Shown: positions 8,480 to 22,393 of the stretch, in pieces | How the letters are laid out: the number at the start of each line of letters is the position of its first letter | How positions within the stretch are numbered: position 1 is the first letter of the stretch | Source: Microcella sp. | Lineage (GTDB): Bacteria > Actinomycetota > Actinomycetes > Actinomycetales > Microbacteriaceae | DNA: 64,000 bases | NCBI RefSeq assembly: GCF_046293215.1 | Contig: NZ_JBKBPI010000011.1 | Span: forward strand, 1,811 to 65,810 | Direction of reading: 5' to 3' | Program-made: the position numbers and the translations under genes | Notes under the pieces: generated by a model | The model's input: the letters and a program-made list of their open reading frames with translations, nothing else | Told to the model about the DNA's origin: nothing | Databases searched by the model: none

Positions 8480-9304
8480 TCACATCTCTTCGTGGGTCTC
8501 CGGGTCGCCACCGAATAGGCGCCCGTCGGGCCGACCGAGTGCGGTGATGGCGGACACCTCAGCATCGCTCAGGGTGAAGCCCCCGAGCTCGAGGTTCTCG
8601 CGCTGCCGCTCCGGGTTTCCCGACTTCGGGATCGGCAGCGAGCCGATCTGCTGGTGCCAGCGCAGGATCACCTGGGCAGGGGTCACCCCGTGTGCCGTTG
8701 CGGCCGACGCGACGGGCGCCGACTCCTTGACCGGGGCGGCCTTGCCGAGGGGGCTCCACCCTTCCGTGACGATGCCGTGCTCGGCGTGGAAGGCGCGCAG
8801 CTCCACCTGTGGGAAGAACGGGTGCAGCTCGATCTGGTTGACCGACGGCATCACACCCGTCGCGTCGGCCACGCGGGTCAGGTACGCGGCCGTGAAGTTC
8901 GAGACGCCGATCGAGCGCACGCGCCCCTCCTCGCGCAGGCGCACCATTGCCCGCCACGTGTCGACGTACTTGTCGACGCTCGGGTTTGGCCAGTGGATCA
9001 GATACAGGTCGAGCACATCGAGCCCGAGTCGTTCCATCGACCCGTCGAACGAGCGCAGCGTCTCGTCGTAGCCGTGGTCGCGCCCCGGCACCTTCGTCGC
9101 GACGATGATCTCGTCGCGCGGAACGGCCGTTTCTGCGATTGCGCGACCCACAGCATCCTCGTTCTGGTAGTTCACCGCCGTGTCGATAAGGCGGTATCCG
9201 GCGTCGAGGGCGCTCAGCACCGCGGCCGTTCCCTCCTCGCCGCGCAGCGGGTAGGTGCCGAAGCCGATGTCGGGCATGGTCGTTCCGTCGTTGAGAGCAG
9301 GCAT
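8480..9304 (-). CDS. aldo/keto reductase (2,5-diketo-D-gluconate reductase-like)
   Basis: 274 aa. GFGTY..., DTAVNYQNE, LDLYLIHWP and IPKS motifs. Confidence 0.9.
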   Translation of the reverse strand: MPALNDGTTMPDIGFGTYPLRGEEGTAAVLSALDAGYRLIDTAVNYQNEDAVGRAIAETAVPRDEIIVATKVPGRDHGYDETLRSFDGSMERLGLDVLDLYLIHWPNPSVDKYVDTWRAMVRLREEGRVRSIGVSNFTAAYLTRVADATGVMPSVNQIELHPFFPQVELRAFHAEHGIVTEGWSPLGKAAPVKESAPVASAATAHGVTPAQVILRWHQQIGSLPIPKSGNPERQRENLELGGFTLSDAEVSAITALGRPDGRLFGGDPETHEEM

Positions 9305-9373
9305 AGCTGCACGCTACCGCGCCTGAGCAGGCTCGCCCTGTCGAACGTCGGCGCACGCGAGTAGCCTCGCGCC

Positions 9374-10375
9374 ATGGCCACCGACGCCCGCCACGCCCTC
9401 GATCCGGCACTCGTCGACTGGATGCTCGCCACCGACCCTGCACTCGCCTGGCAGGTCGAGCGCGACCTGCTCGGCGCGCCCGACGACACGTGGCAGGCAA
9501 CGCGGGCGCGGGTCGCGACCGATGGGCTGGGGGCGCGGATGCTCGCCCACCAAGACCCCGACGGCCAGTGGGCGGGTGGCGCCTACTTTCCGGGCGGCTT
9601 CGACTTTCACGGCCCCGAGGCCGCGCCCGGCGCGGGTCAGCCCTGGACCGCCACGACGTGGTCGCTGAACACCCTGCGCGAGTGGGGTCTCGACGCGTCG
9701 GCGCTCGCCGGCACGGCCGAGAAGCTCGACGCGAACAGTCGGTGGGAGTACGACGACCTGCCCTACTGGGGTGGCGAGGTTGACGCGTGCATCAACGGCT
9801 TTACGCTCGCCAACGGCGCCTGGCTCGGCGCCGAGGTGTCGGGCATCGCGGACTGGTTCGCCGAGCACCAGCTTGATGACGGCGGCTGGAACTGCGAGTG
9901 GGTCGAGGGCTCGACGCGCTCCAGCTTTCACTCGACCCTGAACGCGCTGAAGGGCATTCTCGACTGGGAGATCCGCACCGGCGACGACCGCTTGCGCGAG
10001 GTGCGGCACCGCGGTGAGCAGTATCTGCTGACGCGGCGCCTGCTGTACCGCGCCTCGACGGGCGAGAAAGTGGGCCCCTGGGTGGACCTCTTCGGCTATC
10101 CGTTCCGGCACGTGTACACGGCGCTCAATGCGCTCGACTACCTGCGCCGGGCATTCCTGCATGACGGCGTTCCACCCGATGAGCGCGCCGCCGACGCGGT
10201 CGCGATCGTGCGCGATGCCCGCCAGGGCGACGGCACGTGGCTGCAGGGCAGGCGCTATGCGGGCGCCGTGTGGTTCGAGATCGACGTGCCCGTCGGCGAG
10301 CCGTCGCCGTGGCTGACGTTCTTCGCGACGCGGGTGCTCGACTGGTGGGCGGCGGCCGACCCCGCAGCCCGGTGA
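9374..10375 (+). CDS. prenyltransferase/squalene-oxidase-repeat (alpha/alpha-toroid) protein
   Basis: 333 aa with repeated QW-like motifs (HQDPDGQWAGG, HQLDDGGWNCEW, ARQGDGTWLQG). Confidence 0.6.
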   Translation: MATDARHALDPALVDWMLATDPALAWQVERDLLGAPDDTWQATRARVATDGLGARMLAHQDPDGQWAGGAYFPGGFDFHGPEAAPGAGQPWTATTWSLNTLREWGLDASALAGTAEKLDANSRWEYDDLPYWGGEVDACINGFTLANGAWLGAEVSGIADWFAEHQLDDGGWNCEWVEGSTRSSFHSTLNALKGILDWEIRTGDDRLREVRHRGEQYLLTRRLLYRASTGEKVGPWVDLFGYPFRHVYTALNALDYLRRAFLHDGVPPDERAADAVAIVRDARQGDGTWLQGRRYAGAVWFEIDVPVGEPSPWLTFFATRVLDWWAAADPAAR

Positions 10376-10413
10376 ACTCCTGACAGTTCCTGCCACGCGG
10401 CGTCGCGTCCGGG

Positions 10414-10456
10414 TAGTCTGACGGAAACGCTCAGGAACGGCCACCCGATAGTCTGA
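10414..10456 (+). promoter_or_regulatory. direct repeat TAGTCTGA(C/T)G x2, 35 nt apart, in the ATPase leader
   Basis: TAGTCTGA at 10414-10421 and 10449-10456. They lie in the only AT-rich stretch upstream of the ATPase start. Confidence 0.3.
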
Positions 10457-10516
10457 TGATTCATTTGCAGGAAAAGTTTTGCCTGTTTTCAGTGTGCTCG
10501 ACCCGATCGGAGCCCC

Positions 10517-13246
10517 ATGTCGAACGCTTCGGACACCACGTTTCGCGCCCCCGCGGCCGTGCACGCCGCCAGCGTTGACGAGACCTTCGCCGCCCTCGAC
10601 GTCACGCCCGACGGGCTGAGCGCCGACGAGGCTGCCCGCCGACTTCAGACGGTTGGCCCGAACCGTCTGCCCGAGAAGGCTCCCGACCCGGCGTGGAAGC
10701 GCCTTCTGAGGCACTTCAACGACGTGCTCATCTACGTGCTCCTTGCGGCCGCCGTGCTGAAGACATTCCTGCTCGATTGGGTCGACGTGGGTGTAATCCT
10801 CGCGGTCGCCATCATCAACGCGCTCATCGGCTTCATTCAGGAGGGTAGGGCTCAGCGCGCCCTAGACGGCCTGCGCAGCATGCTGTCGGTGCGCGCTCAG
10901 GTGCGCCGCGACGGCGAATGGGTCGGGACGAACGCCGAGAACCTCGTGCCCGGCGACGTGGTGCGTGTGAAGTCGGGTGACCGCATCCCGGCCGACATTC
11001 GCATCACTCACTCCACCGAGCTGCGCGCCGAAGAGGCGGGTCTGACGGGCGAGTCCGAGCCCGTCACGAAGAGCGCCGACCCGGTCGACGAAGTCTCGGG
11101 CATCGGTGACCGCACGTCGATCGGCCACTCCGGCAGCCTCGTCGTCAGCGGCCGAGGCACCGGTGTCGTCGTCGCGACCGGCGCCGAGACCGAGATCGGC
11201 CGCATCAGCACGATGATCGAGTCGGTCGAGCAACTGTCGACCCCGCTTGAGCGCAAGATTCACCGCTTCAGCATTCTGCTGGCGCGCATCATCCTGACCG
11301 TTGCGGTGCTGCTGGTCGTGTTCGGCTTTGCGGTGCACGATTACCCCGTGCCCTTGCTGCTGACCGTCGCAGTGGCTTTCGCGGTAGCTGCGATCCCCGA
11401 GGGCCTCCCCGCCATCGTGACCATCACGCTCTCGTTGGGCGTGCAGGCGATGGCTCGCCGCAACGCGATCACCCGGCGGCTCACGTCCGTCGAAACACTC
11501 GGATCCGTCACTGTCATCTGCTCGGACAAGACGGGCACGCTCACGAAGAACGAGATGACCGTCGAACGCGTGGTGACATCCGAGGCCACCTACGACGTTG
11601 ACGGAACGGGATACGACCCGAGCGGAGGCATCCGCCGCGATGGCGCTGAGGTCGACGTCACCAGCGAGGATGCTCTGCGCCGGCTGATCACGATCATGGC
11701 CGTCGCGAACGACTCGGGCCTCAGAGAGAAGGACGGCGCGTGGTCGATCGTCGGCGAGCCGACCGAGGGCGCGCTCATCACGCTCGCGCACAAGGCGCAG
11801 GCCGTTCCCGAGGAGTTCGAGCGCCTCGCAGCCGTTCCCTTCGAGTCAGAACACAAGCTGATGGCGACCCTCGACCGCGGCCCCGACGGCGACGTGACGG
11901 TGCACGTGAAGGGGGCGCCTGATCGGGTGCTCGACCGCTGCGTCGCGCAGCTCGGGGCGAACGGCGACACTGAGCCGCTCGACGCCGACTTCTGGCGCGA
12001 CCGCATCGCCGAGCTCAGCGCTGGCGGCCTGCGGGTGCTGGCCGCAGCGCAGCGTGCCGCCGAACCAGACACGAGCGACCTCGCGCTTGAGCACCTCGAC
12101 GACGACCTCGTCTTTGTCGGCGTCGTCGGCATCCTCGATCCGCCTCGCCCCGAGGCGATTGAGGCGATCGACGACGCGAAGCGAGCCGGAATCCGCGTGA
12201 AGATGATCACGGGTGACCACGCGGGAACGGCGACGGCCATCGGCCGCCAGATGGGCATCATCGACCCCGACGACGACCACGCCGACGAGGCCATCACCGG
12301 TGCCGAACTCGACGCCGCCAGCGACGAAGAGCTGCGCGACATCGTGCAGCGCTACGACACGTTCGCCCGGGTGAGCCCCGAGCACAAGCTGCGCATCGTC
12401 GAGGCGCTCCAGGCGCACAACGAGGTCGTCGCCATGACCGGCGACGGCATCAACGACGCGCCCGCACTGCGCCGCGCAGACGTTGGCGTGGCCATGGGCA
12501 TCAAGGGCACCGAGGCGACCAAGGAAGCCGCCGAGATCGTGCTCGCCGACGACAACTTCGCCACGATTGCGCGCGCGGTCGAGGAGGGCCGGCGCACCTT
12601 CGACAACATCGTGAAGTCGGTTGTGTTCCTGCTGCCGACGAACGGCGCGCAGTCGCTCGTGCTGCTGGTCGCCGTGCTGCTCGGCCTGTCGATCCCGCTC
12701 GCCCCGGTGCAGATCCTGTGGGTCAACCTCATCGCGGCCGTCACCCTGTCACTCGCCCTCGCGTTCGAACCGGCCGAGGCCGACGTCATGAAGCGCGCAC
12801 CGCGCATCCCGGACCGCCCGATTGTCGGCGCGGCCCACCTGATCCAGATCGCACTCGCCTCGCTGCTCATCGGCGGGGGAACGCTCGCCATGTACTACCT
12901 GGCGCGCGGCCAGGGCGTCGACGACCCGCAGGCGCAGAGCCTCGCCGTGACCACCCTCGCGGTCGCGCAGATCGGCTACCTGCTGACCTGCCGCAACCTG
13001 CGGGGGGCCACGGTGTCGCCGGCCCAGTGGTTCTCGAACCCCATCGTGTGGCTGTCGATCGGCGGACTGCTCGTGCTGCAGGCGCTGTTCGTGTATGCGC
13101 CGTTCATGAACACCCTGTTCGGCTCTGCCCCCCTACCCGCCAGATCGTGGGCGTTCGCGTTCGCGATCGCGGCCGCCGTGTACGTCGCCATCGAGGTGAC
13201 GAAGGCGATCACGCGCCGACTCATGCCCGAGGCGGCGCCGCGATGA
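10517..13246 (+). CDS. cation-translocating P2-type ATPase
   Basis: 909 aa. CSDKTGTLT phosphorylation motif, TGES, AIPEGLP (TM4), MITGD and TGDGINDAP. Confidence 0.95.
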   Translation: MSNASDTTFRAPAAVHAASVDETFAALDVTPDGLSADEAARRLQTVGPNRLPEKAPDPAWKRLLRHFNDVLIYVLLAAAVLKTFLLDWVDVGVILAVAIINALIGFIQEGRAQRALDGLRSMLSVRAQVRRDGEWVGTNAENLVPGDVVRVKSGDRIPADIRITHSTELRAEEAGLTGESEPVTKSADPVDEVSGIGDRTSIGHSGSLVVSGRGTGVVVATGAETEIGRISTMIESVEQLSTPLERKIHRFSILLARIILTVAVLLVVFGFAVHDYPVPLLLTVAVAFAVAAIPEGLPAIVTITLSLGVQAMARRNAITRRLTSVETLGSVTVICSDKTGTLTKNEMTVERVVTSEATYDVDGTGYDPSGGIRRDGAEVDVTSEDALRRLITIMAVANDSGLREKDGAWSIVGEPTEGALITLAHKAQAVPEEFERLAAVPFESEHKLMATLDRGPDGDVTVHVKGAPDRVLDRCVAQLGANGDTEPLDADFWRDRIAELSAGGLRVLAAAQRAAEPDTSDLALEHLDDDLVFVGVVGILDPPRPEAIEAIDDAKRAGIRVKMITGDHAGTATAIGRQMGIIDPDDDHADEAITGAELDAASDEELRDIVQRYDTFARVSPEHKLRIVEALQAHNEVVAMTGDGINDAPALRRADVGVAMGIKGTEATKEAAEIVLADDNFATIARAVEEGRRTFDNIVKSVVFLLPTNGAQSLVLLVAVLLGLSIPLAPVQILWVNLIAAVTLSLALAFEPAEADVMKRAPRIPDRPIVGAAHLIQIALASLLIGGGTLAMYYLARGQGVDDPQAQSLAVTTLAVAQIGYLLTCRNLRGATVSPAQWFSNPIVWLSIGGLLVLQALFVYAPFMNTLFGSAPLPARSWAFAFAIAAAVYVAIEVTKAITRRLMPEAAPR

Positions 13247-13256
13247 CGGACACCCT

Positions 13257-13520
13257 GTGAGCGCCGCGGTCAGTGTCGCCCTGATCGTGGCGGCCTTCGC
13301 CCTGTTTGCCTGCATCCTGGCGGGGCTGTGGCGCGCCGTTGCGGGCCCGACGATCGAAGACCGGCTCACCGCGTTCGTGCTGTTGGGCGCGGGCGGTGCC
13401 GCCCTGTTCATCGTGCTCGCGGCGATCGCCGACCTGCCGGCCCTGCGTGACATCGCGATCGTCGTCGTCGGCCTGGCCACCATCGTCGCGGTCGTGTTCA
13501 CTCGGCGGTCGGTGCGCTGA
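13257..13520 (+). CDS. mrpF: Mrp/Mnh antiporter subunit F-like
   Basis: 87 aa, 3 TM. RAVAGPTIEDRLTAF matches the MrpF GPxxxDR motif. Confidence 0.8.
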   Translation: MSAAVSVALIVAAFALFACILAGLWRAVAGPTIEDRLTAFVLLGAGGAALFIVLAAIADLPALRDIAIVVVGLATIVAVVFTRRSVR

Positions 13521-13843
13521 TGGTCATCGTCGACGTGCTCGTCATCACCCTGCTCGCGGCGGGTGTCTTCTTCGTTGTCGCGGGCACGGTGGGGCTGCTG
13601 CGCTTCCCCGACCTCGCGAGCCGCTTGCACGCGGTGTCGAAGGCCGACGTCCTCGGCCTCGGACTCATCGCCACCGCGCTCGCCCTGCACCTTCTCATCA
13701 CCGAACCGGGATGGGCAGCGGTCGGCGTGGTGGCGAAGCTGGCCCTCATCTGGATTCTCGCCCTCATCGGCACCGCCGCGAACGCCTACCTCATGGCGGG
13801 CAGCAGGCGGCGGGCCGAGGTAGAGACGGAGGAGGAGCCGTGA
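13520..13843 (+). CDS. mrpG: Mrp/Mnh antiporter subunit G-like
   Basis: 107 aa. GTVGLLRFPDLASRLHAVSKADVLGLG is the MnhG signature. ATGA overlap with the previous gene. Confidence 0.85.
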   Translation: MVIVDVLVITLLAAGVFFVVAGTVGLLRFPDLASRLHAVSKADVLGLGLIATALALHLLITEPGWAAVGVVAKLALIWILALIGTAANAYLMAGSRRRAEVETEEEP

Positions 13844-14820
13844 CGGTCATCGCCTTCTCCGACGTCGACGTGCTCGACGTGCTCGTCGTGGCGGCCGTCG
13901 CCGTCACCGCGATACTCGCCATCGCGATTCCTCGCCGGGTCGGCGCGACCATCGCCTTCCTCGTCTTCGGCCTGCTGCTCGCGCTGCTGTGGGCACGTGT
14001 CGCCGCGCCCGACGTGGCGATCGCCGAGGCGGCGCTCGGCGGTGGGGTGGCGGGGGCGCTGCTGGTCGATGCACTTCACCGGCGACAGCCCGCGCAGCCG
14101 AAGCGCGACCATCGTCGCGCGGTGGCGATCACGGCGGTCGGCGCCGCGCTCGGTGCGGTGACGTTCGCCGCCCTGGCGACCGTGCTGTCGCGTCTCACGG
14201 CGGAGCCCGCCGACCTCGGGCCGCTCGCCCTGGAGGCCGTCGAGCGCAGCGGCGTGAGCCACCCCATCACCGCGGTGCTGTTGAACTTCCGCAACCTCGA
14301 CACGCTGCTCGAGATCGCGGTCGTCGTGTTCGCCGCGGTGGGTGCTGCGGCGCTGTCGCGTGACCGCATCCGCACCGTGACCGACCCGGGCCCGGTACGG
14401 CGCGTCATCGCCGTCATCATCGTGCCGGCTCTCGTGCTGCTCGCCGCCTGGCTGCTCGTGGCCGGAACCAGTGAGCCCGGCGGAGCCTTCCAGGCCGGTG
14501 CCGTGCTCGGTGCCGCGCTCATCATCGCCCACCTGTGCGGGGTGCGCGCCGCCCGCGCGGCCGGAGGGCGCGCGCTCGTGCTCGTCGTGGCGGGCCTGCT
14601 GGCGTTCATCCTGCTCGGCGGCATCGGGCTCGCGGTGACGGGAACGTGGCTCGCGCTCGACCTCAGCTGGGCGTTCGCGGCCATTCTCTCCATCGAGACC
14701 GTGCTCACCGTCAGCATCGGGGTCGCGCTCGCCATGCTCTTCCTGGCCGCCGGCTCGCGCGACGATGCGGCGGCCGCCGACAGCGCGGCAGCCGCCCCAG
14801 CCCTGGGGGGTGCCGCGTGA
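13840..14820 (+). CDS. mrpB: MrpA-C-terminal (DUF4040-like) + MnhB-domain fusion subunit
   Basis: GTG at 13840 (GTGA overlap). 326 aa, polytopic. ITAVLLNFRNLDTLLEI is the MnhB-type motif. The upstream part of track ORF 13306.. is an out-of-context extension. Confidence 0.75.
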   Translation: MTVIAFSDVDVLDVLVVAAVAVTAILAIAIPRRVGATIAFLVFGLLLALLWARVAAPDVAIAEAALGGGVAGALLVDALHRRQPAQPKRDHRRAVAITAVGAALGAVTFAALATVLSRLTAEPADLGPLALEAVERSGVSHPITAVLLNFRNLDTLLEIAVVVFAAVGAAALSRDRIRTVTDPGPVRRVIAVIIVPALVLLAAWLLVAGTSEPGGAFQAGAVLGAALIIAHLCGVRAARAAGGRALVLVVAGLLAFILLGGIGLAVTGTWLALDLSWAFAAILSIETVLTVSIGVALAMLFLAAGSRDDAAAADSAAAAPALGGAA

Positions 14821-15113
14821 CCACCCTGCAGCTGTTTATGTATGCCGGTGCGTTCATCCTCGTGGTGGGGGTTGCCGCGACCCTGCTGGTACGCGACCTG
14901 ATTCGCCGCCTGATCGCCCTCAACGTCGCCTCTGGGGGCGTCATGCTGCTGTTGTTGGCGCTCGCCGATCGCGGCGACGGCGAGCCCGACCCCGTGCCGC
15001 AAGCCCTCGTGCTCACGGGCATCGTCGTCATGGCGGCCGTCACGGGCATCGCCATCGTGCTGGCGCGACGGGTCGAGCAGCTCGACGACGACCTCGAGGA
15101 GGTCGAGCAGTGA
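14817..15113 (+). CDS. mrpC: Mrp/Mnh antiporter subunit C-like (NuoK-like)
   Basis: GTG at 14817 (GTGA overlap). 98 aa, 3 TM. Confidence 0.8.
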   Translation: MTTLQLFMYAGAFILVVGVAATLLVRDLIRRLIALNVASGGVMLLLLALADRGDGEPDPVPQALVLTGIVVMAAVTGIAIVLARRVEQLDDDLEEVEQ

Positions 15114-16570
15114 TGTCGGCCGCAGCCCTCGTGCTCGCGCCCGTCTTTCTGCCCCTCGCGGTCGGCGCGCTGTCGGCCGTGCTGCCTCGGCGAGCGGCGG
15201 CGACGCTGACGGTCATCGCGGCCGCCGCCACGCTGATGGTCGCCGTGTTGCTGGGCATCGCCGTGCTCGACGCGGGCCCCGTGCGGCTGGAGGTGGCTGG
15301 CTGGGCGCCGCCCGTCGGAATCCTTCTCGCCGCGGACGGGCTCTCGGTCGTCATGATCGGCCTGTCGGCAATCGCGGTGCTGGCTGCTGCGCTCGTTGCC
15401 GCCGCCGACGACCACTTCGGGGGAGGGCACGCGTTCTGGCCGCTCGTTGGTGCGGCGGCCGCGGCCGTCAACGGCGTCTTTGTCGCGCGCGACGTGTTCA
15501 CCGCCTTCGTGCTGTTGGAGCTGTTGACCATCGCATCCGTCGCGCTTGTCGCCCTGGGGGGAGCGCGATCGGCCGCAGCCGCCCTGCGCTACCTCTTCGT
15601 TGCCGTGACCGGCTCGCTGTTCTTCTTGCTCGCGGTCGCCCTCACGTACGGACACACCGGCACCGTTGACCTGGCGCGGGCCGCCGAGCGCGCCGACGAC
15701 ACCGTGATCGTCGGGGCGATCATCGCCCTCACCGTGGTCGGCATGGCCGCGAAGACGGCGCTGTTCCCGTTGCACTCGTGGCTGCCGGCCGCCCATCCCG
15801 CTGCCCCGACGGCGGTCAGTGCCCTGCTCTCGGCGCTTGTGATCAAGGCCTCGATCGTGATTCTTTGGCGCATCGTCGAGTACTTCGGCCCGCTCACCGA
15901 CCTCGCCGCGCCGCTCGCGACCGCCGTGGGCGTCGCGGGCGCCGCCGCCGTGCTGTGGGGCGGGGTGCTCGCGCTGCGACGCGACCGCCTGAAGTCGATC
16001 ATCGCCTATTCAACGGTCGCCCAAGTCGGGTACATGGTGCTGCTGGTGCCGCTCGTGTTCACCGCGAGCGACCCGCAGGTGGCCTGGATCGGCGGCATTC
16101 TGATCACTCTGGCTCACGGCGTCGCGAAGGCCGCCATGTTCCTCGCCGCCGGAGCGCTCGCTACCGCGGCCGGCACGAGTCGGCTCGACGGGCTCGAGGG
16201 CACGATCAGCCGCATGCCGTGGACGGTCGCCGCGATTGGGCTCGCCGGCGTCAGCCTCGCGGGGCTTCCGCCCACGCTCGGCTTCGTCGGCAAATGGATG
16301 CTCGTGCAGGCCTCGCTCGACGCGGGCGCCTGGTGGTGGCTGGCCCTGCTACTCGGCGGCGGGCTGCTGACTTTCGCCTACACGGCGCGCATGCTGCGAG
16401 CCACCTTCAACCCGCCCGGCGACTTCTCGGGCGCCCGCGAGCTCACCCGGCCCGCGCGCACCGTGGCCATCGTGCCGCTGGCGCTCGCCGCCCTCTCGGT
16501 GGTGCTCGGTCTCATTCCGTGGCTGCTCATTGATGTTCTGAGTGCTGCGCCGATGGGGGGTGGCGCATGA
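15113..16570 (+). CDS. mrpD: Mrp subunit D-like, proton-conducting antiporter-like subunit (NuoM/N family), copy 1
   Basis: 485 aa. KTALFPLHSWLPAAHPAAPTAVSALLSALVIKA is the core motif. ATG 15113 (or GTG 15110) abuts the mrpC stop. Confidence 0.85.
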   Translation: MSAAALVLAPVFLPLAVGALSAVLPRRAAATLTVIAAAATLMVAVLLGIAVLDAGPVRLEVAGWAPPVGILLAADGLSVVMIGLSAIAVLAAALVAAADDHFGGGHAFWPLVGAAAAAVNGVFVARDVFTAFVLLELLTIASVALVALGGARSAAAALRYLFVAVTGSLFFLLAVALTYGHTGTVDLARAAERADDTVIVGAIIALTVVGMAAKTALFPLHSWLPAAHPAAPTAVSALLSALVIKASIVILWRIVEYFGPLTDLAAPLATAVGVAGAAAVLWGGVLALRRDRLKSIIAYSTVAQVGYMVLLVPLVFTASDPQVAWIGGILITLAHGVAKAAMFLAAGALATAAGTSRLDGLEGTISRMPWTVAAIGLAGVSLAGLPPTLGFVGKWMLVQASLDAGAWWWLALLLGGGLLTFAYTARMLRATFNPPGDFSGARELTRPARTVAIVPLALAALSVVLGLIPWLLIDVLSAAPMGGGA

Positions 16571-18102
16571 ACGATGACACGGTCACCGTGATGAGCGCGC
16601 TGCCGGTTGTGCTTCTGCTGACGTCGCTCGTGCCGGCGCTGCTGATCTTTGCGCTGCGCGAGAAGCAGACGGTGCTGCGCACCACCCTGAACCTCGCTGG
16701 AGCGATCGCGAAGGTCTTGCTCGTGATCGTGCTGATCCCGCGCGTCGTGGCGGGCGAGGAGCTGCGCGCCGAGTTCACGTGGATTCCCGGGCTCGACATC
16801 GTCTTCGTGACCGACACGTTCTCGCTGTTCTTCGTCGCGCTCTCGGCGGGCCTGTGGTTGGCGACGACGATCTACGCCGTCGGCTACCTGGAGGGCTCAC
16901 CCAACCGCAGCCGGTTCTTCGGCTTCTTCAGCCTGTGCGTCACGGCCACGGTCGGTATCGCCCTGGCCGGCAACCTGCTCACCTTCCTGATTTTCTTCGA
17001 GCTGTTGACGCTCGTCACGTACCCGCTGGTGGCTCACCGCGGAACGCGGGCGGCACTGCGCGGTGCCCGCATCTACCTCGCGTACACGCTCGGCGGCGGC
17101 GTCGCCCTGCTGCTCGGCGTCGCCTGGCTGACCGTCGAGGTCGGGCCGGTCGAGTTCCGTGCCGGCGGTATCCCCGAGGTGGCGGAATTCGCCGCCCGTG
17201 ACCCGCTCACGGCGACGGTAATCGGCGCAGTGTTGTTGCTCGGCGTCGGCGTGAAGGCCGCGTTGTTCCCGCTGCACGGCTGGCTGCCGATTGCCATGGT
17301 GGCCCCAGCGCCGGTGAGCGCCCTGCTGCACGCGGTGGCCGTGGTGAAGGCTGGCGCCTTCGGAATCATCCGCATCGTCGAGGACGTTTTCGGCCTGGCC
17401 CTGTTCGCCGAGCTCGGGATGCTGCAGGCGCTCGCCGTCGTCGCCTCCGTCACGATCGTCTACGGGTCCGTCCGCGCGCTCGCGCAGGACGACTTGAAGA
17501 AGCGCCTCGCATATTCGACGGTGTCGCAGGTGTCGTACATCGCGCTCGGCGCGGCGCTGCTGTCGCCGATCGCCACCGCCGGGGCGATCGTGCACATGGT
17601 CAACCAGGGCTTCATGAAGATCACGCTGTTCTTCTGCGCCGGCCTGTTCGCCGAAGAGCTCAAGCTGTCAAAGGTCAGCCAGCTCGCCGGGGTCGGCCGA
17701 CGGATGCCCGTCACGAGCGCCGCTTTCACCATCGCCGCGCTCGGCATGATCGGGCTGCCGCCGTTCGCCGGCTTCATCTCGAAGTGGGCGCTCGGGCTCG
17801 GTGGGCTCGACGCGGGCCAGCCGTGGGTGATCGCCGTGCTGCTGACCAGCACGGTGTTGAATGCCGCCTACTTCCTGCCGATCATCGCGACCATCTGGAC
17901 GTCGCCGCGATCAGAGTCGGAGGGCAGCGATGAGGGCACGTTCCCGGTACCCGCCCGGCGTTCGGGCTGGGAGGCGCCCGCGAGCCTCCTGCTGCCCGCG
18001 GTCGCGACCGCGCTCTTCGTCATCCTGTTTGGCGTCGCCGCCGGCTGGGGCTACTCGCCCTGGGTTCTCGCGCAGATCGTGGGGGAGGGAGCATGGCCGT
18101 GA
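16567..18102 (+). CDS. proton-conducting antiporter-like subunit (NuoM/N/MrpD family), copy 2
   Basis: 511 aa. KAALFPLHGWLPIAMVAPAPVSALLHAVAVVKAG motif. ATGA overlap. Confidence 0.85.
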   Translation: MNDDTVTVMSALPVVLLLTSLVPALLIFALREKQTVLRTTLNLAGAIAKVLLVIVLIPRVVAGEELRAEFTWIPGLDIVFVTDTFSLFFVALSAGLWLATTIYAVGYLEGSPNRSRFFGFFSLCVTATVGIALAGNLLTFLIFFELLTLVTYPLVAHRGTRAALRGARIYLAYTLGGGVALLLGVAWLTVEVGPVEFRAGGIPEVAEFAARDPLTATVIGAVLLLGVGVKAALFPLHGWLPIAMVAPAPVSALLHAVAVVKAGAFGIIRIVEDVFGLALFAELGMLQALAVVASVTIVYGSVRALAQDDLKKRLAYSTVSQVSYIALGAALLSPIATAGAIVHMVNQGFMKITLFFCAGLFAEELKLSKVSQLAGVGRRMPVTSAAFTIAALGMIGLPPFAGFISKWALGLGGLDAGQPWVIAVLLTSTVLNAAYFLPIIATIWTSPRSESEGSDEGTFPVPARRSGWEAPASLLLPAVATALFVILFGVAAGWGYSPWVLAQIVGEGAWP

Positions 18103-19877
18103 TGTGGACTCTCTCCTTCGTCGTCCCGCTTCTGGTGGCGGCGACGATCGCCGCGCTGAGTCTCGGGGCGGGCGAGGCGCGTGCCCGCGCCCGCGAGCTC
18201 GTCGTGCAGTACGCGTGGCTCGCGGTCGTGCCGACGGGCATCGTCGCGAGCCTCGACGACGGCGCGCTGAAAACGGTCGACTGGATGCTGTTCGGCACCG
18301 CGATCCGCCTCGATGAGGTGGGGCGCCCGCTCGTGCTGCTCGCGGTCATCCTGTACGGCATCGCGCTGGCGTTCGTGCCACGGTCCATCTCCGAGCGCCC
18401 CGCCGGGCTGAACGGCTTCCTGCTGCTGTGCTTCACCGCGAACGTGGGGGTCTTCGTTGCGGCGAACCTCGTCACGTTCTACCTCGTGTTCGCCGCCATG
18501 AGCTTCCTCGGCTACGCGATCGTCGTGCACGACCGCACGACCTCGGCGCGCCGGGCCGGCGCGGTGTACCTCGTGATGACGGTGTTTGGGGAGTCGGCCG
18601 TGCTGGGCGCATTCCTGCTCATCGCGTCCGAGGGCGTCACCGACGTTATCAGCGTGCCTGCGGCGGTCGCCGCATCAGACGCTCGAGACGTCATCGTGGC
18701 GCTGCTCATCATCGGCTTCGGGGTGAAGGCCGGCATGATTCCGCTGCACGTGTGGTTGCCCCTTGCCCACCCCGCCGCGCCGAGCCCGGCCAGCGCCGTG
18801 CTGTCGGGTGTGATGCTCAAAGCGGGAATCATCGGCCTGCTGCGCTTTTTGCCGCTCGGCGAGGGGGCCGCCGAACCGCTCTGGGGCGGTCTGCTCGTCA
18901 CGCTCGCCCTCGTCGGGGGGCTGCTCGCTGCCGTCGTCGGCGTGCTGCACGACAACCCGAAGGTGATTCTCGCGTACAGCAGCATCGGCCAGATGGGCTT
19001 CATTACCGCGCTCATCGGTGCGGCACTGCTCGAGCCGGCGATCGCGCCCGCGGCCATCGCCGCTGCCGTCGTCTACAGCGTCGCCCACGGGCTGATCAAG
19101 GGCGCGCTGTTCTTCAGCATCCAGGTGTGGGATCTCAGCCGCGCCCCCACGTGGGCTGTCGTCGTGCCCCAGACCGTGGCCGCGCTGGGCCTTGCCGGAG
19201 CGCCGCTGACGGCGGGCTTCATCGCCAAGTACGTGTCGAAAGAGTCGCTCGGAGACGTCGCATTGCCCGGCCTTCCGGTGGTCGCGCTCGCCGACATCCT
19301 CCCGTGGTTTGCCGTCGGGTCAACCGTGCTGCTCGCCCGATTCGCCATCGCCATGAGCCGCCGAACGCGCCGCCGCACCGCCGGAAAACCGATCAGCACC
19401 GCGGCCTGGGCGGTGCTGGCGCTCGCCGCGGCCGCCCCCGTGTGGTGGCTCGCGACCGGGTTCGCACCCCCGCTCACCGTGCCCGGCTGGTTCTCGCCCG
19501 GCCCCGTCGTCGACCAGTCGTGGCCGTTCCTGCTCGGCATCGCCCTCGCGCTGGCCGCGGCCGCGCTCGCGCGTCGGCCACGATTCCGGGATGCTCGCCT
19601 GCTGCATCCGCGCGGAGACATCGTGCCCGAGGGCGACGTCGTGGTGCTGCTTGAGCGGGCTGCCGGCGGCACGATGCGGGGCGTGATCCGGGCATCCGGT
19701 GTTCTGGGGGCGACGCGCGACGCGCTCGTGGAGCGCGTGCGGCGGGGGCCGTCGCCGATGCCGACGGTCAGCGGCGTTCAGGCGCGGCTGGGAACCTGGG
19801 TGGTGTCGGGTGCGCTTGCGGTCGCAGCCCTGGCCGGCGCCCTCCTATTCGTGGTGCTGGCGGGAGGGGGCGGCTGA
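18093..19877 (+). CDS. proton-conducting antiporter-like subunit (MrpA/NuoL- or MrpD-like), copy 3, with C-terminal extension
   Basis: 594 aa. KAGMIPLHVWLPLAHPAAPSPASAVLSGVMLKAG motif. About 150 extra C-terminal residues with additional TM segments. Confidence 0.8.
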   Translation: MAVMWTLSFVVPLLVAATIAALSLGAGEARARARELVVQYAWLAVVPTGIVASLDDGALKTVDWMLFGTAIRLDEVGRPLVLLAVILYGIALAFVPRSISERPAGLNGFLLLCFTANVGVFVAANLVTFYLVFAAMSFLGYAIVVHDRTTSARRAGAVYLVMTVFGESAVLGAFLLIASEGVTDVISVPAAVAASDARDVIVALLIIGFGVKAGMIPLHVWLPLAHPAAPSPASAVLSGVMLKAGIIGLLRFLPLGEGAAEPLWGGLLVTLALVGGLLAAVVGVLHDNPKVILAYSSIGQMGFITALIGAALLEPAIAPAAIAAAVVYSVAHGLIKGALFFSIQVWDLSRAPTWAVVVPQTVAALGLAGAPLTAGFIAKYVSKESLGDVALPGLPVVALADILPWFAVGSTVLLARFAIAMSRRTRRRTAGKPISTAAWAVLALAAAAPVWWLATGFAPPLTVPGWFSPGPVVDQSWPFLLGIALALAAAALARRPRFRDARLLHPRGDIVPEGDVVVLLERAAGGTMRGVIRASGVLGATRDALVERVRRGPSPMPTVSGVQARLGTWVVSGALAVAALAGALLFVVLAGGGG

Positions 19878-20377
19878 TGGTGGTCTCGGTGATCTTTCGC
19901 ACGATTGTCATCGCGGCGGCGTGGTTCGCTGTGACGGAACTGCGCCCCTCGGCAATCGTCTACGCGCTCGCGGCCGTGCCCGTGGGGGTTGCCGCTACGT
20001 ACCTCGTGACCGGGATGCCCGCGCGGGGAGGCTCGCTGCGACTCTCTCGGGGCGTCGCGGCGACGGCCGCGAGCCTGCGTTTCGTCGGCTGGATCGCCCG
20101 CAGCGCGATCCTGGGCGGCGGTGACGTCGCGCGCCGGGCGTTGTGGCTGCCGCGCCCCGACGTGGACCCCGCATGGGTGACCCGGCGCACCACCCTCGGG
20201 ACCGCGGCGGGGCGCGTGACCCTGGCCCTCGCCATCAACCTCGCCCCGGGAACGCTCAGCGCGCGCATCGACGGGGACGAGCTCGAGATTCACGTCATTA
20301 CGAATGAGCTCGATGTGGACGCGGCGGTGACGGCGCTCGAAACCCGCATCGCGGCCATCGAACGCGCGATGGCGTGA
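19877..20377 (+). CDS. mrpE: Mrp/Mnh antiporter subunit E-like
   Basis: 166 aa. AINLAPGTLSARIDGDELEIHVI matches the MnhE TPGT-L...H motif. Confidence 0.7.
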   Translation: MVVSVIFRTIVIAAAWFAVTELRPSAIVYALAAVPVGVAATYLVTGMPARGGSLRLSRGVAATAASLRFVGWIARSAILGGGDVARRALWLPRPDVDPAWVTRRTTLGTAAGRVTLALAINLAPGTLSARIDGDELEIHVITNELDVDAAVTALETRIAAIERAMA

Positions 20378-20379
20378 TG

Positions 20380-21150
20380 TCAGGCGGGGGATGCCGTGTC
20401 GAGCGCGGCTTCCACCCGTTCCACCACCCGACGCTGCGCTTCGTTCAGGGAGTCATTCGAGTACTCCGCCAACAGGGCAACTGCTCGCGGGTCGAACGAC
20501 ACCTCGTCGTCTCGAAGAGCTCTGATGACGTCTCCGTACGTCGCCACCATGTCGGCGACGATCGCCTCGACGACGCTATCCGGAGCATCCGCGTCGAGGT
20601 CGGCGAGGCGGCGGGTGAGCGTGAGTGACGTCTCGAGCAGCGCGGGTTCCGAGAAGCGCGCGTACAACCCCGCCAACTCGTCGAGCACCTCGGGGCTCGC
20701 CAGGTGGCCGATCAGGATCGCCTGCTCGCGGTCAACGCGGGCCAGCGTAGAGTCGCCGAGTCGTGCGGCGAAGAGCGCGATGTGCGGCGCGAAGGCATCG
20801 GGCAAGTCGGGCGCGGCGTTCCACGCCATGAGCTGTGCGATCAGCGCTCGACGCTCGGTTAGGCGCTCGATCTCCCGGGCCGTCTCATCGTCGAGCCGCT
20901 CGAGCACCTCTGCCGTGTCCTTGCCGTCGCGGTCGAGCATCGGCGCCAGTTCGCCCAGGCGGAAACCGAGCGACGCGAGTCGGACGATACGCAGCACGCG
21001 CACCAGGTGGTGCACCGAATATTCGCGGTATCCGTTGGGCGTCCGCGGAGGCTCGTCGAGGAGGCCGAGCTGGTGGTAATGCCGCAGGGTGCGCACCGTG
21101 ACGCCGGCGAGGTGGGCGAGGTCACTGCTGCGCATCGGTCGGATCCTCAT
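20380..21150 (-). CDS. MerR-family transcriptional regulator
   Basis: MRSSDLAHLAGVTVRTLRHYHQLGLLDEP...GYREY is an N-terminal MerR HTH. Confidence 0.9.
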   Translation of the reverse strand: MRIRPMRSSDLAHLAGVTVRTLRHYHQLGLLDEPPRTPNGYREYSVHHLVRVLRIVRLASLGFRLGELAPMLDRDGKDTAEVLERLDDETAREIERLTERRALIAQLMAWNAAPDLPDAFAPHIALFAARLGDSTLARVDREQAILIGHLASPEVLDELAGLYARFSEPALLETSLTLTRRLADLDADAPDSVVEAIVADMVATYGDVIRALRDDEVSFDPRAVALLAEYSNDSLNEAQRRVVERVEAALDTASPA

Positions 21151-22393
21151 CGGCAGGGGGCGTCGACGAGTTCAGACTACGGAGTGATCGCGAGACCAGC
21201 GAGACAGCGAGGGCAATGAGCCAGAGGGAGGCGATCGACCACGACGCGATCTCGAGCGTGGCGTACTCGACGAGCAACGCCGCGGCCATGATGCCTGCCG
21301 GTGCCGCCACCGTGAGTGCGGCATTCTGCGTACTCAAGATGCGGCCGCGCATGCTTTCGGGAATGCGCTCGATGAGCACGACCCCGATGATCGTGTTGAG
21401 GATTCCGCCACCCGCGCCGACCAGTGCGGCGGCACCGATGACGATCAGCACCGATGGCAGCGAGGCCATGGCGAAGAAGCCCGCGGTCGCGAGCAGCAGT
21501 CCGCCCATGAACCACGCTCGTCGGTGGCCCGGCGTGCCGACGGCGGCGAACAGGCCCGCGCCGATGAGGAGGCCACCCGCGAGGGCGGAGAGGATCAGCC
21601 CGAGCATCCCGGCCTGGTCCTGAAGCGTGACGTAGACCGGCAGAATCAGGCCCTGGAACGCGGCGAGCACCATCGCCACGATCACGCTGAAGACGGTGAC
21701 CGTCACGAGGAAGCGATCCCGGGCAAGTGCCCGCCATCCCTCTTTCAGGTCGCGCCAGGCCGACGGCGTCGGCGGGGGCGTCGGGAGCGAGCTCGAGAGG
21801 GCGACGGATGCATGGGGCTTGATTCGTCCGATCCGATGCGGCATCACGAGCGTCACCATCGCCGCGAGGAACGACGTGCCGGCCGTCACCCACAACACGG
21901 TCGTGCCGTCGAGGAGCGTCACCAACAGGCCCGCAAGGGCCGGCCCGATCAGGAAGGCGACCGAGCCGAGCATTTCACGCAGGCCGATGAGCCGCTCGGC
22001 GCTCATCGCACCGTGCCGCACGATCGCGGGAACGAGTGCTTCGCGCGCGGTGATCCCCGGCACGTCGCCGATCGAGCCGAGAATGCCGAACAGGACGAAC
22101 CAGCCGATCGTGAGTCCGGTGATCGCGTCGACGATGGGCAGCGCCGCCATCGCCGCCGCCGAGACGAGGTCGGTGACGACGGAGGACGTTCGCCGGTTGA
22201 TCCGGTCGATCACGACGCCCATGAGCAGCCCCGCAACCACGGCGGGAAGCGCTGTCGCCGCGGCGACGGTTCCCGCGCCCAACGCGCTTCCCGTTGTCAG
22301 CAGGACGATGAGGGGGAGGGCGATGGCGGCGATCGAGTTGCCGAGCGTCGACAGGAAGTATGACGCGAGATACGCAGTGGGGATGAGTCGCAT
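21122..22393 (-). CDS. MFS transporter
   Basis: 423 aa, about 12 TM. DRINRR loop motif. Confidence 0.85.
   Translation of the reverse strand: MRLIPTAYLASYFLSTLGNSIAAIALPLIVLLTTGSALGAGTVAAATALPAVVAGLLMGVVIDRINRRTSSVVTDLVSAAAMAALPIVDAITGLTIGWFVLFGILGSIGDVPGITAREALVPAIVRHGAMSAERLIGLREMLGSVAFLIGPALAGLLVTLLDGTTVLWVTAGTSFLAAMVTLVMPHRIGRIKPHASVALSSSLPTPPPTPSAWRDLKEGWRALARDRFLVTVTVFSVIVAMVLAAFQGLILPVYVTLQDQAGMLGLILSALAGGLLIGAGLFAAVGTPGHRRAWFMGGLLLATAGFFAMASLPSVLIVIGAAALVGAGGGILNTIIGVVLIERIPESMRGRILSTQNAALTVAAPAGIMAAALLVEYATLEIASWSIASLWLIALAVSLVSRSLRSLNSSTPPADEDPTDAQQ

Follow-up and report, generated by a model that had tools for sequence, protein, structure and literature searches.

The 64,000-nucleotide stretch of Microcella sp. 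DNA analysed here (the window) carries at positions 10517-20377 nine plus-strand genes, all abutting or overlapping, in which a 909-aa P2-type ATPase is joined to eight subunits of an Mrp (CPA3) antiporter, as read from the list of open reading frames (ORFs) and the gene junctions. The conserved ion-binding Asp of M6 has been lost in the clade to which this ATPase belongs, and ATPases of this clade recur beside Mrp genes in unrelated alkaliphiles and in soda-lake taxa. Building on the observed gene content, junctions, ion-site residues, recurrent clade-specific linkage and alkaliphilic hosts, we consider it rather probable that the operon unites, by co-expression, a primary and a secondary transport system for monovalent cations and protons that serves life at high pH. 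The interest lies in the ATPase clade and its linkage to Mrp, while the Mrp architecture is known. Full-text searches on the pairing and on Mrp architecture found no paper that ties a P-type ATPase to Mrp or antiporter-like genes, and as far as could be found both the pairing and the Asp-less clade are uncharacterised. An initial annotation of this DNA had named, as one way in which it could be refuted, that the exact architecture was already characterised; the Mrp part of it is published (PMC5703873), and for the ATPase-Mrp pairing no paper was found.

The nine genes, in their order of transcription, are the following.

10517..13246, plus strand: P2-type ATPase of the Asp-less clade, 909 aa (Pfam, NCBIfam, PDB relatives, alignments)
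13257..13520, plus strand: MrpF-like protein, 87 aa, GTG start (Pfam MrpF_PhaF, weak, E 0.0015; NCBIfam NF009244, 2.4e-7)
13520..13843, plus strand: MrpG, 107 aa (Pfam PhaG_MnhG_YufB, 2.5e-18)
13840..14820, plus strand: fusion of the MrpA C-terminal domain (MbhD/MbhE-like) with MrpB, A'B, 326 aa (Pfam MbhD 19-81, MbhE 95-178, weak, and MnhB 188-299)
14817..15113, plus strand: MrpC (NuoK-like), 98 aa (Pfam Oxidored_q2, 8.9e-12; conserved PDPVPQALVLTGIV motif)
15113..16570, plus strand: D1, antiporter-like, MrpD-type, 485 aa (Pfam Proton_antipo_M, 5.9e-48; best NCBIfam match MrpD)
16567..18102, plus strand: D2, antiporter-like, 511 aa (Pfam Proton_antipo_M, 4e-57, and Proton_antipo_N)
18093..19877, plus strand: D3, equivalent of the MrpA N-terminal module and NuoL, 594 aa (Pfam, residue alignment, AF2, Foldseek)
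19877..20377, plus strand: MrpE, 166 aa, last gene of the unit (Pfam MNHE, 2.4e-16)

The TGA stop of the ATPase gene (13244-13246) is followed after a 10-nt spacer by the GTG of mrpF (13257), and all junctions past this point overlap by 1, 4 or 10 nt: TGATG between F and G (stop 13518-13520, ATG 13520-13522), GTGA at 13840 between G and A'B and at 14817 between A'B and C, TGATG at 15111-15115 between C and D1, ATGA at 16567 between D1 and D2, a 10-nt overlap at 18093-18102 between D2 and D3, and TGATG at 19875-19879 between D3 and E. The initial annotation had given these positions exactly, apart from the F/G junction, which it had taken for ATGA. Its view of the nine genes as one transcription and translation unit fits this packing, and we infer that they are co-transcribed. 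An identical nine-gene layout is present among the gene calls of a public contig. Consensus scans found no promoter- or terminator-like site in the gap between the ATPase gene and mrpF, overall counts being no higher than in shuffled sequence and the scans thus uninformative for a high-GC organism. Profile-HMM searches (Pfam, NCBIfam) returned the subunit assignments that had been predicted, and no second D-D-D or antiporter cluster was found when looked for in the window.

To place the ion-site residues of the ATPase we used an alignment to Na,K-ATPase, a motif match to SERCA and alignments of 114 sequences and of 120 homologs. The protein has the Pfam domains Cation_ATPase_N, E1-E2_ATPase, Hydrolase and Cation_ATPase_C, its catalytic motifs TGES, DKTGT and TGDGINDAPAL are intact, and its best relative in the PDB is LMCA1 (6zhf, 3e-166), followed by SPCA and SERCA. 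By overall similarity it is therefore the P2-type ATPase that had been annotated, but it is not an ordinary SERCA/LMCA1-like pump, as three carboxylates of the site, the M6 Asp among them, are missing. The ion-site signature reads E295 N709 Q712 N737 A740 A741 Q818 versus the canonical E N E N T D E/Q. In M4 (IPEGLPA) the Glu is kept, with Glu295 as the sole carboxylate of the site; M5 (LLPTNGAQSL) has Gln at the position of SERCA E771 and Na,K-ATPase E779, M6 (LWVNLIAAVTL) has Ala-Ala at SERCA T799 and D800 (Na,K-ATPase T807 and D808), and M8 has Gln at the SERCA E908 position. Because a single site carboxylate is left, Ca2+ is an unlikely substrate, and it is more plausible that the site takes a monovalent ion or a proton.

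The M6 Asp (SERCA D800) is absent from the window ATPase and from all of its 120 closest database homologs and is kept in 57/57 canonical P2 ATPases sampled. In a neighbour-joining tree of 114 sequences the Asp-less ATPases form one clade apart from canonical P2 enzymes, with the signature PEGLPA in M4, LPTNG(A/G)(Q/E) in M5 and W-x-N-x-x-x-(A/S/T/N) in M6. Its members have one to three site carboxylates, the window protein and its actinobacterial relatives having one. The NCBIfam scores of the window ATPase are below every equivalog cut-off: 631.9 versus 798.3 for TIGR01522 and 596 versus 703.4 for TIGR01116 (the PMR1/SERCA-type models, which score best), and 532.1, in two stretches, versus 645.05 for TIGR01523 (IID; P2D/ENA). 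The kdpB model gives only 126 bits. At their source, members of the clade are annotated as "magnesium-transporting ATPase", "calcium-translocating P-type ATPase" or with generic cation-ATPase names.

Judged from its sequence, the Mrp part of the operon is a Group 3 Mrp (CPA3) antiporter, and by analogy it should perform monovalent cation/H+ antiport. All subunit types A to G are present in one same-strand cluster, in the order mrpFGBCDDAE that has been catalogued as Group 3 for the alkaliphile Microbacterium sp. TS-1, where the D3 equivalent carries the label 'A' (Ito, Morino & Krulwich 2017, PMC5703873). The same source lists Ah-mrp of Aphanothece halophytica (mrpCD1D2EFGAB) as Group 3, and this is a demonstrated Na+/H+ antiporter (PMC5703873). 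The gene order F-G-(A'B)-C-D-D-D-E is thus a catalogued, Mbh-like one, and to call it rearranged, as had been done, was an overstatement. A Microbacterium locus (L166) matches the window Mrp genes gene for gene at 53-72% identity. An alignment of the 326-aa fusion protein was used to search genomes, one for each species; this gave 415 relatives, and 80 loci were kept. Nearly all of them have the same module F-G-(A'B)-C-D-D-D, with MrpE in last position in Actinobacteria and in first position in Proteobacteria and other phyla. Three consecutive antiporter-like genes are present in 62/67 loci with enough downstream sequence; the three antiporter-like subunits noted before, with Proton_antipo_M in the 485-, 511- and 594-aa proteins, are thus usual in this clade. 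The mrpF-like protein, whose Pfam match is weak, has a conserved position and 36-56% identity in related loci, and D2 is the most conserved of D1-D3 (52-72% identity across Group 3 loci). The survey loci are strikingly rich in soda-lake and haloalkaliphilic taxa (titles of L002-L081), for example Thioalkalivibrio, Wenzhouxiangella, Ectothiorhodospira haloalkaliphila, Roseinatronobacter, Paracoccus bogoriensis, Rhabdonatronobacter, Desulfonatronum and Thiomicrospira sp. ALE5.

A residue alignment of the antiporter-like subunits showed that D1 and D2 keep the Glu of transmembrane helix (TM) 5 and the Lys residues of TM7, TM8, TM11 and TM12. D3 keeps the four Lys residues, but its TM5 Glu is replaced by Ala, which holds for every D3 ortholog. 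The AlphaFold2 (AF2) model of D3, with a predicted local distance difference test score (pLDDT) of 88, has a long helix at 515-550 (36 residues) and a terminal TM helix at 570-589, and its top Foldseek matches over the full length are NuoL (8e9g_L) and MrpA (7qru_A). According to this model D3 is a NuoL/MrpA-N-terminal module with a lateral helix, and the extension of about 150 aa that had been noticed in the third antiporter-like subunit is present and can be identified as this lateral helix with its anchor. For the 326-aa protein (AF2, pLDDT 77) the best Foldseek match is the C-terminal part of the naturally fused Dietzia MrpA/B (7d3u_A), followed by MbsE, MrpB and MbhD. The split of MrpA described in the initial annotation is thereby borne out, with D3 as the N-terminal module and the C-terminal domain fused to MrpB. 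Two further features were seen in the survey: Thiocapsa imhoffii has a second, partial and divergent Mrp-like cluster upstream of its main Group 3 cluster and on the opposite strand (L025:2886-7214, minus strand), with matches to G, A'B, D1 and D3 at 29-42% identity, and tandem-Usp genes lie after D3 in L019, L020, L021, L028 and L062.

The link between the two parts was analysed from both sides. Anchored on Mrp, an ATPase of the same clade lies within 10 kb in 10/78 non-Microcella Group 3 loci, in varied layouts, which gives a binomial p <= 4e-6 at a generous null of 2% per locus. M6 is without Asp in nine of these ten ATPases, and for the tenth (L039) the end of the locus falls before M6. 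Anchored on the ATPase, linkage to three antiporter-like genes was found in 6/18 Asp-less versus 0/57 Asp-containing loci (Fisher p = 9e-5). The 57 control loci are a by-product of a metagenome scan with the ATPase, in which the generic MTGDGIND pattern evidently dominated, hence most of the 80 loci obtained were canonical P2 ATPases and could be re-used as negative control. A neighbourhood survey of the kind that had been suggested thus shows a pairing that is non-random and clade-specific. Across phyla the linkage recurs, each time on its own, in no fewer than four subclades of the ATPase and no fewer than six layouts.

Within Microbacteriaceae the ATPase is joined to the Mrp operon in the Microcella lineage only. 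The adjacency is kept in three Microcella-like genomes (L001, L002, L167) with a spacer of 10-13 nt, the 86%-identical relative L167 having 13 nt and different downstream genes. In the loci examined, the Group 3 clusters of Microbacterium, Aeromicrobium, Xylanimonas, Kocuria, Marmoricola and Hoyosella are without the ATPase, and in the Microbacterium locus L166 there is no P-type ATPase within 8 kb. About a dozen Asp-less ATPases stand alone (including L086-L094, L099, L171 and L172), and linkage is in part convergent or divergent (L035, L063), other loci having the ATPase downstream. Absence of the adjacency from all relatives had been named as a sign of chance; it is absent from most, but recurs patchily in different arrangements. 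Such a patchy recurrence in varied, in part convergent or divergent, layouts points to a functional partnership rather than an obligate complex. In Thiocapsa an ATPase beside a Group 3 Mrp was found in four tblastn pieces in different frames (L030:17497-19549, minus strand), which is either a pseudogene or an assembly error.

The window ATPase has its closest relatives, at 65-72% identity, in Cellulomonas bogoriensis, in Nitriliruptoraceae and in metagenomes. Outside Nitriliruptoraceae, 5/5 close relatives examined have the order x-D-D-D-ATPase, that is a small protein (x), D, D, D with the lateral helix, and the ATPase. These operons and the gammaproteobacterial ones described below are located as follows.

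L082:4974-12736; L085:4981-12757; L168:4204-12745; L169:4354-12808; L170:4433-12763: x-D-D-D-ATPase operons of C. bogoriensis and four metagenomic actinobacterial contigs
L027:2457-9433; L060:1362-8476; L071:3420-9367; L047:5973-9300: gammaproteobacterial loci with CPA2 and one or two tandem-Usp genes between ATPase, mrpE and mrpF

None of the five x-D-D-D-ATPase loci has MrpE, MrpF, MrpG or A'B within 10 kb. They are alkaliphilic actinobacterial loci, their D1-D3 have the functional Glu and Lys residues and keep the lateral helix, and a gene for a MarR-like protein of 97 aa lies upstream in L168-L170. The small protein (95-97 aa) is a membrane protein with three predicted helices and a conserved acidic tail (DL.LD.DP.R). 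It sits in the position of MrpC and has no PDPVPQALVLTGIV motif, no Pfam match, and in comparison with MrpC a BLASTP E of 0.16 and an hhalign probability of 27%. The window ATPase falls into the x-D-D-D-ATPase clade and the window Mrp genes into the ordinary actinobacterial Group 3 clade; this suggests that the ATPase gene has moved from elsewhere to the side of a complete set of Mrp genes. On the 60-kb contig L168 a distance of about 10 kb separates two paralogous genes for Asp-less ATPases (P0143 and P0130; L168:1-90 and 10001-12745), of which only the second joins the D-D-D genes.

A 1.25-Mb metagenome contig (GC 51%; L103:8897-20142) has LysR and ATPase-E-F-G-MbhD-(MbhE/MnhB)-C-D1 followed by a fused D2D3 (a single ORF of 1073 aa), with a separate MbhD-like gene and 2 nt between the ATPase gene and mrpE. 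Three gammaproteobacterial loci have the order ATPase-CPA2 (Na_H_Exchanger+TrkA_N)-MrpE-tandem Usp-F-G-A'B-C-D-D-D. In a metagenome-assembled genome of Nitriliruptoraceae (L083:7902-12724, L084:2120-6942) the gene immediately before the ATPase (66% identical to that of the window) is not an Mrp gene but one for a Na_H_Exchanger protein of 666 aa, which has a weak match to Usp.

From these data we infer the ion specificity, transport direction and physiological role of the system as follows. The eight genes would build a Group 3 Mrp with split MrpA, an extra MrpD and three chained proton-channel modules, which would take up H+ and expel cytoplasmic Na+ or K+, driven by the membrane potential as in characterised Mrp systems. 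The ATPase site, with Glu295 as single carboxylate, would be poorly fit for Ca2+ and better for one monovalent ion, so that the pump would most likely move Na+ (or K+/Li+) outward at the cost of ATP, possibly versus H+. Such a route would be independent of the proton-motive force, useful when this force is poor at high pH, and would act on the same ion circuit as Mrp, both parts being co-expressed for one task with no need for physical contact. As the ATPase is found beside two unrelated antiporter families (CPA2 and CPA3), a shared ion circuit fits better than a specific docking partner. Its association with Usp proteins likewise speaks for a partnership in function more than for one that depends on contact. 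The hosts of Mrp-ATPase pairs are alkaliphiles or soda-lake taxa, the source organism Microcella is alkaliphilic, and Microcella putealis originates from nonsaline alkaline groundwater. Microbacterium TS-1 is a Na+-independent alkaliphile whose three Mrp complexes may, according to the authors, couple various cations (PMC3868852).

Several points weigh against a common circuit of this kind. An internal promoter might lie inside the 3' end of the ATPase gene, because in Microbacterium the same Mrp cluster manages with no ATPase gene in front of it, and the substrate may differ among members of the Asp-less clade, because their site carboxylates vary from one to three. A pump exporting Na+ would also compete with a Na+/H+ antiporter for cytoplasmic Na+ and would not help to acidify the cytoplasm, so that the logic is clearer for Na+ resistance than for pH homeostasis. 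The main observation that a shared circuit leaves unexplained is the bare small-protein-D-D-D-ATPase operon, which in 5/5 cases hints at a coupling tighter than co-regulation.

The known systems that come closest each share a part of these features. The Group 3 Mrp systems of TS-1 and Aphanothece have the same subunit set, a split or short MrpA, several MrpD-type genes and alkaliphilic or halotolerant hosts, TS-1 also the same order, but they are described without a P-type ATPase; a biochemically characterised Group 3 Mrp with three antiporter-like genes was not found in the literature examined. LMCA1, SERCA and SPCA share with the window ATPase the domain set, PEGLPA in M4 and all catalytic motifs, whereas in the window protein the M6 Asp is gone, E771, T799 and E908 are replaced by Q, A and Q, and the protein falls into a separate monophyletic clade. 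ENA pumps may share the lack of the M6 Asp with the window ATPase, but they are not known to have PEGLPA, which the window ATPase keeps. Fungal ENA (P2D) Na+/K+ efflux pumps and the P-type Na+-ATPase reported in an alkaliphile, Exiguobacterium aurantiacum (Ueno et al. 2000, as cited in PMC2928168), are precedents for P2-like pumps that use ATP to expel Na+ under alkaline conditions. Mbh and Mbs (6cfw, 6u8y) also have an Mrp-like membrane module of similar order, E-F-G-D-E-F(B)-G(C)-H(D), with MbhD/MbhE-like pieces separate from the antiporter-like subunit and an unrelated energy-input module encoded alongside. The operon of the window differs from them in having no hydrogenase or redox subunits within 10 kb and three antiporter-like subunits versus one or two, and its adjacent energy enzyme is a P-type ATPase with no known coupling. 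In KdpFABC the P-type ATPase KdpB is in a fixed complex with a membrane ion-path subunit from the same operon. This is a conceptual precedent for a physical complex, but KdpB is a P1A enzyme, and KdpA, which is a channel-like protein of the SKT family, is not homologous to Mrp subunits.

A physical supercomplex, in which the Asp-less ATPase would dock on the three antiporter-like subunits and drive them with ATP or serve as their cation module, would resemble the hydrogenase module that energises the Mrp-like part of Mbh, or KdpB with KdpA. We regard it as unlikely, and similarly doubtful is the wider claim that the ATPase and the three antiporter-like subunits are one ATP-powered complex-I-like cation/proton translocator, with a P-type ATPase replacing the redox module of Mbh or complex I. 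The conserved small-protein-D-D-D-ATPase operon of C. bogoriensis and four contigs speaks for such a complex, since a bare D-D-D module of intact proton channels has no known stand-alone way to work, and the Microcella ATPase looks as if it had been moved from one D-D-D set to another; the tight junctions (10 nt in the window, 2 nt in L103) and the degenerate ion site of the ATPase point in the same direction. However, the Mrp subunits missing near these operons could be encoded elsewhere in the genomes, many Asp-less ATPases are solitary, most Group 3 Mrp clusters are without ATPase, linked pairs may be convergent or divergent, and the same clade adjoins CPA2-type antiporters too. A docking insertion was also looked for, and no insertion or deletion specific to the Mrp-linked ATPases was found. 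Of the two ideas put forward in the initial annotation, the combined primary/secondary machine is thus kept as the best reading, while no evidence was obtained for the physical supercomplex, an idea that the x-D-D-D-ATPase clusters keep alive.

The ATPase could also be an ordinary LMCA1/SERCA-like P2A Ca2+/H+ exporter, suited to Ca-rich alkaline groundwater and merely sharing a promoter with Mrp. Its closest solved relatives and best NCBIfam models would agree with this, P2A pumps counter-transport H+, and the alkaline groundwater origin of Microcella putealis fits as well. Nevertheless we judge this improbable, as both model scores stay under the equivalog cut-off, the protein has Q, A, A and Q where SERCA has E771, T799, D800 and E908, and the M6 Asp is present in all 57 canonical P2 ATPases sampled, none of which is Mrp-linked. 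Chance juxtaposition would mean that, in the Microcella lineage, an ATPase gene happened to insert in front of an mrp operon that was already there, without any functional relation. Although the adjacency is missing in other Microbacteriaceae and actinobacterial Group 3 loci examined and flanking genes differ between relatives, we hold this to be very improbable in view of the independent recurrence across phyla, the clade specificity with none of the 57 controls linked, and the conservation in three Microcella-like genomes.

Upstream and downstream of the operon the following features were found.

9374-10375, plus strand: ORF of 333 aa, apparently soluble, Trp/Asp/Gly-rich (no Pfam match at E <= 0.1)
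10376..10516, plus strand: leader, presumed promoter region of the operon, relatively AT-rich (from sequence; promoter role presumed)
20380..21150, minus strand: MerR-family regulator, convergent with mrpE (Pfam, gene calls)
21122-22393, minus strand: MFS transporter, next to the MerR gene (gene calls)

The leader has a mean column identity of 87% to Microcella putealis CV2 and contains at 10409-10456 a 13-nt direct repeat, CCGGGTAGTCTGA / CCCGATAGTCTGA, with a start-to-start spacing of 35 nt, which is partly kept in CV2 and could be an operator. A consensus scan did not find a sigma-70 consensus in the leader, and an Rfam scan of 9000-21500 (E <= 1) for a riboswitch or leader RNA 5' of the ATPase gene gave nothing relevant. 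The 333-aa ORF was rejected as a member of the operon, being soluble-looking, without Pfam match and 141 nt away. The stops of mrpE and the convergent MerR gene are only 2 nt apart, and the MerR/MFS pair is not at the same downstream position in L167. The operon has as neighbours a soluble protein of no assigned function, an aldo-keto reductase, MerR and MFS, and the nine-gene unit itself contains no redox subunits of the Mbh/Mbx/FHL type (hydrogenase, NuoB/C/D/H/I-like).

In summary, a P-type ATPase clade that shed its conserved ion-binding Asp has repeatedly been recruited beside three chained antiporter-like subunits, sometimes with no other Mrp gene within 10 kb. The finding is one of genomic context and would give real experimental leverage. 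It raises the questions of which substrate an Asp-less pump has, how it feeds or is fed by the Mrp circuit at high pH, and whether ATP can be coupled to antiporter-like subunits. Complex I, Mbh and Mbs have membrane arms whose evolutionary stem is the Mrp antiporter, and how antiporter-like subunits are driven is debated. If the ATPase did power them directly, it would stand in for the missing MrpE/F/G/A'B cation module in operons of the C. bogoriensis type, which would be a new way to energise antiporter-like subunits and, after KdpFABC, a second kind of hetero-oligomeric P-type ATPase transport complex. The conservative reading still defines a large unannotated transporter clade together with a context-based lead to its function. 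As Microcella putealis was obtained from alkaline groundwater that is nonsaline, the pairing is also a possible route to alkaline adaptation under scarce Na+.

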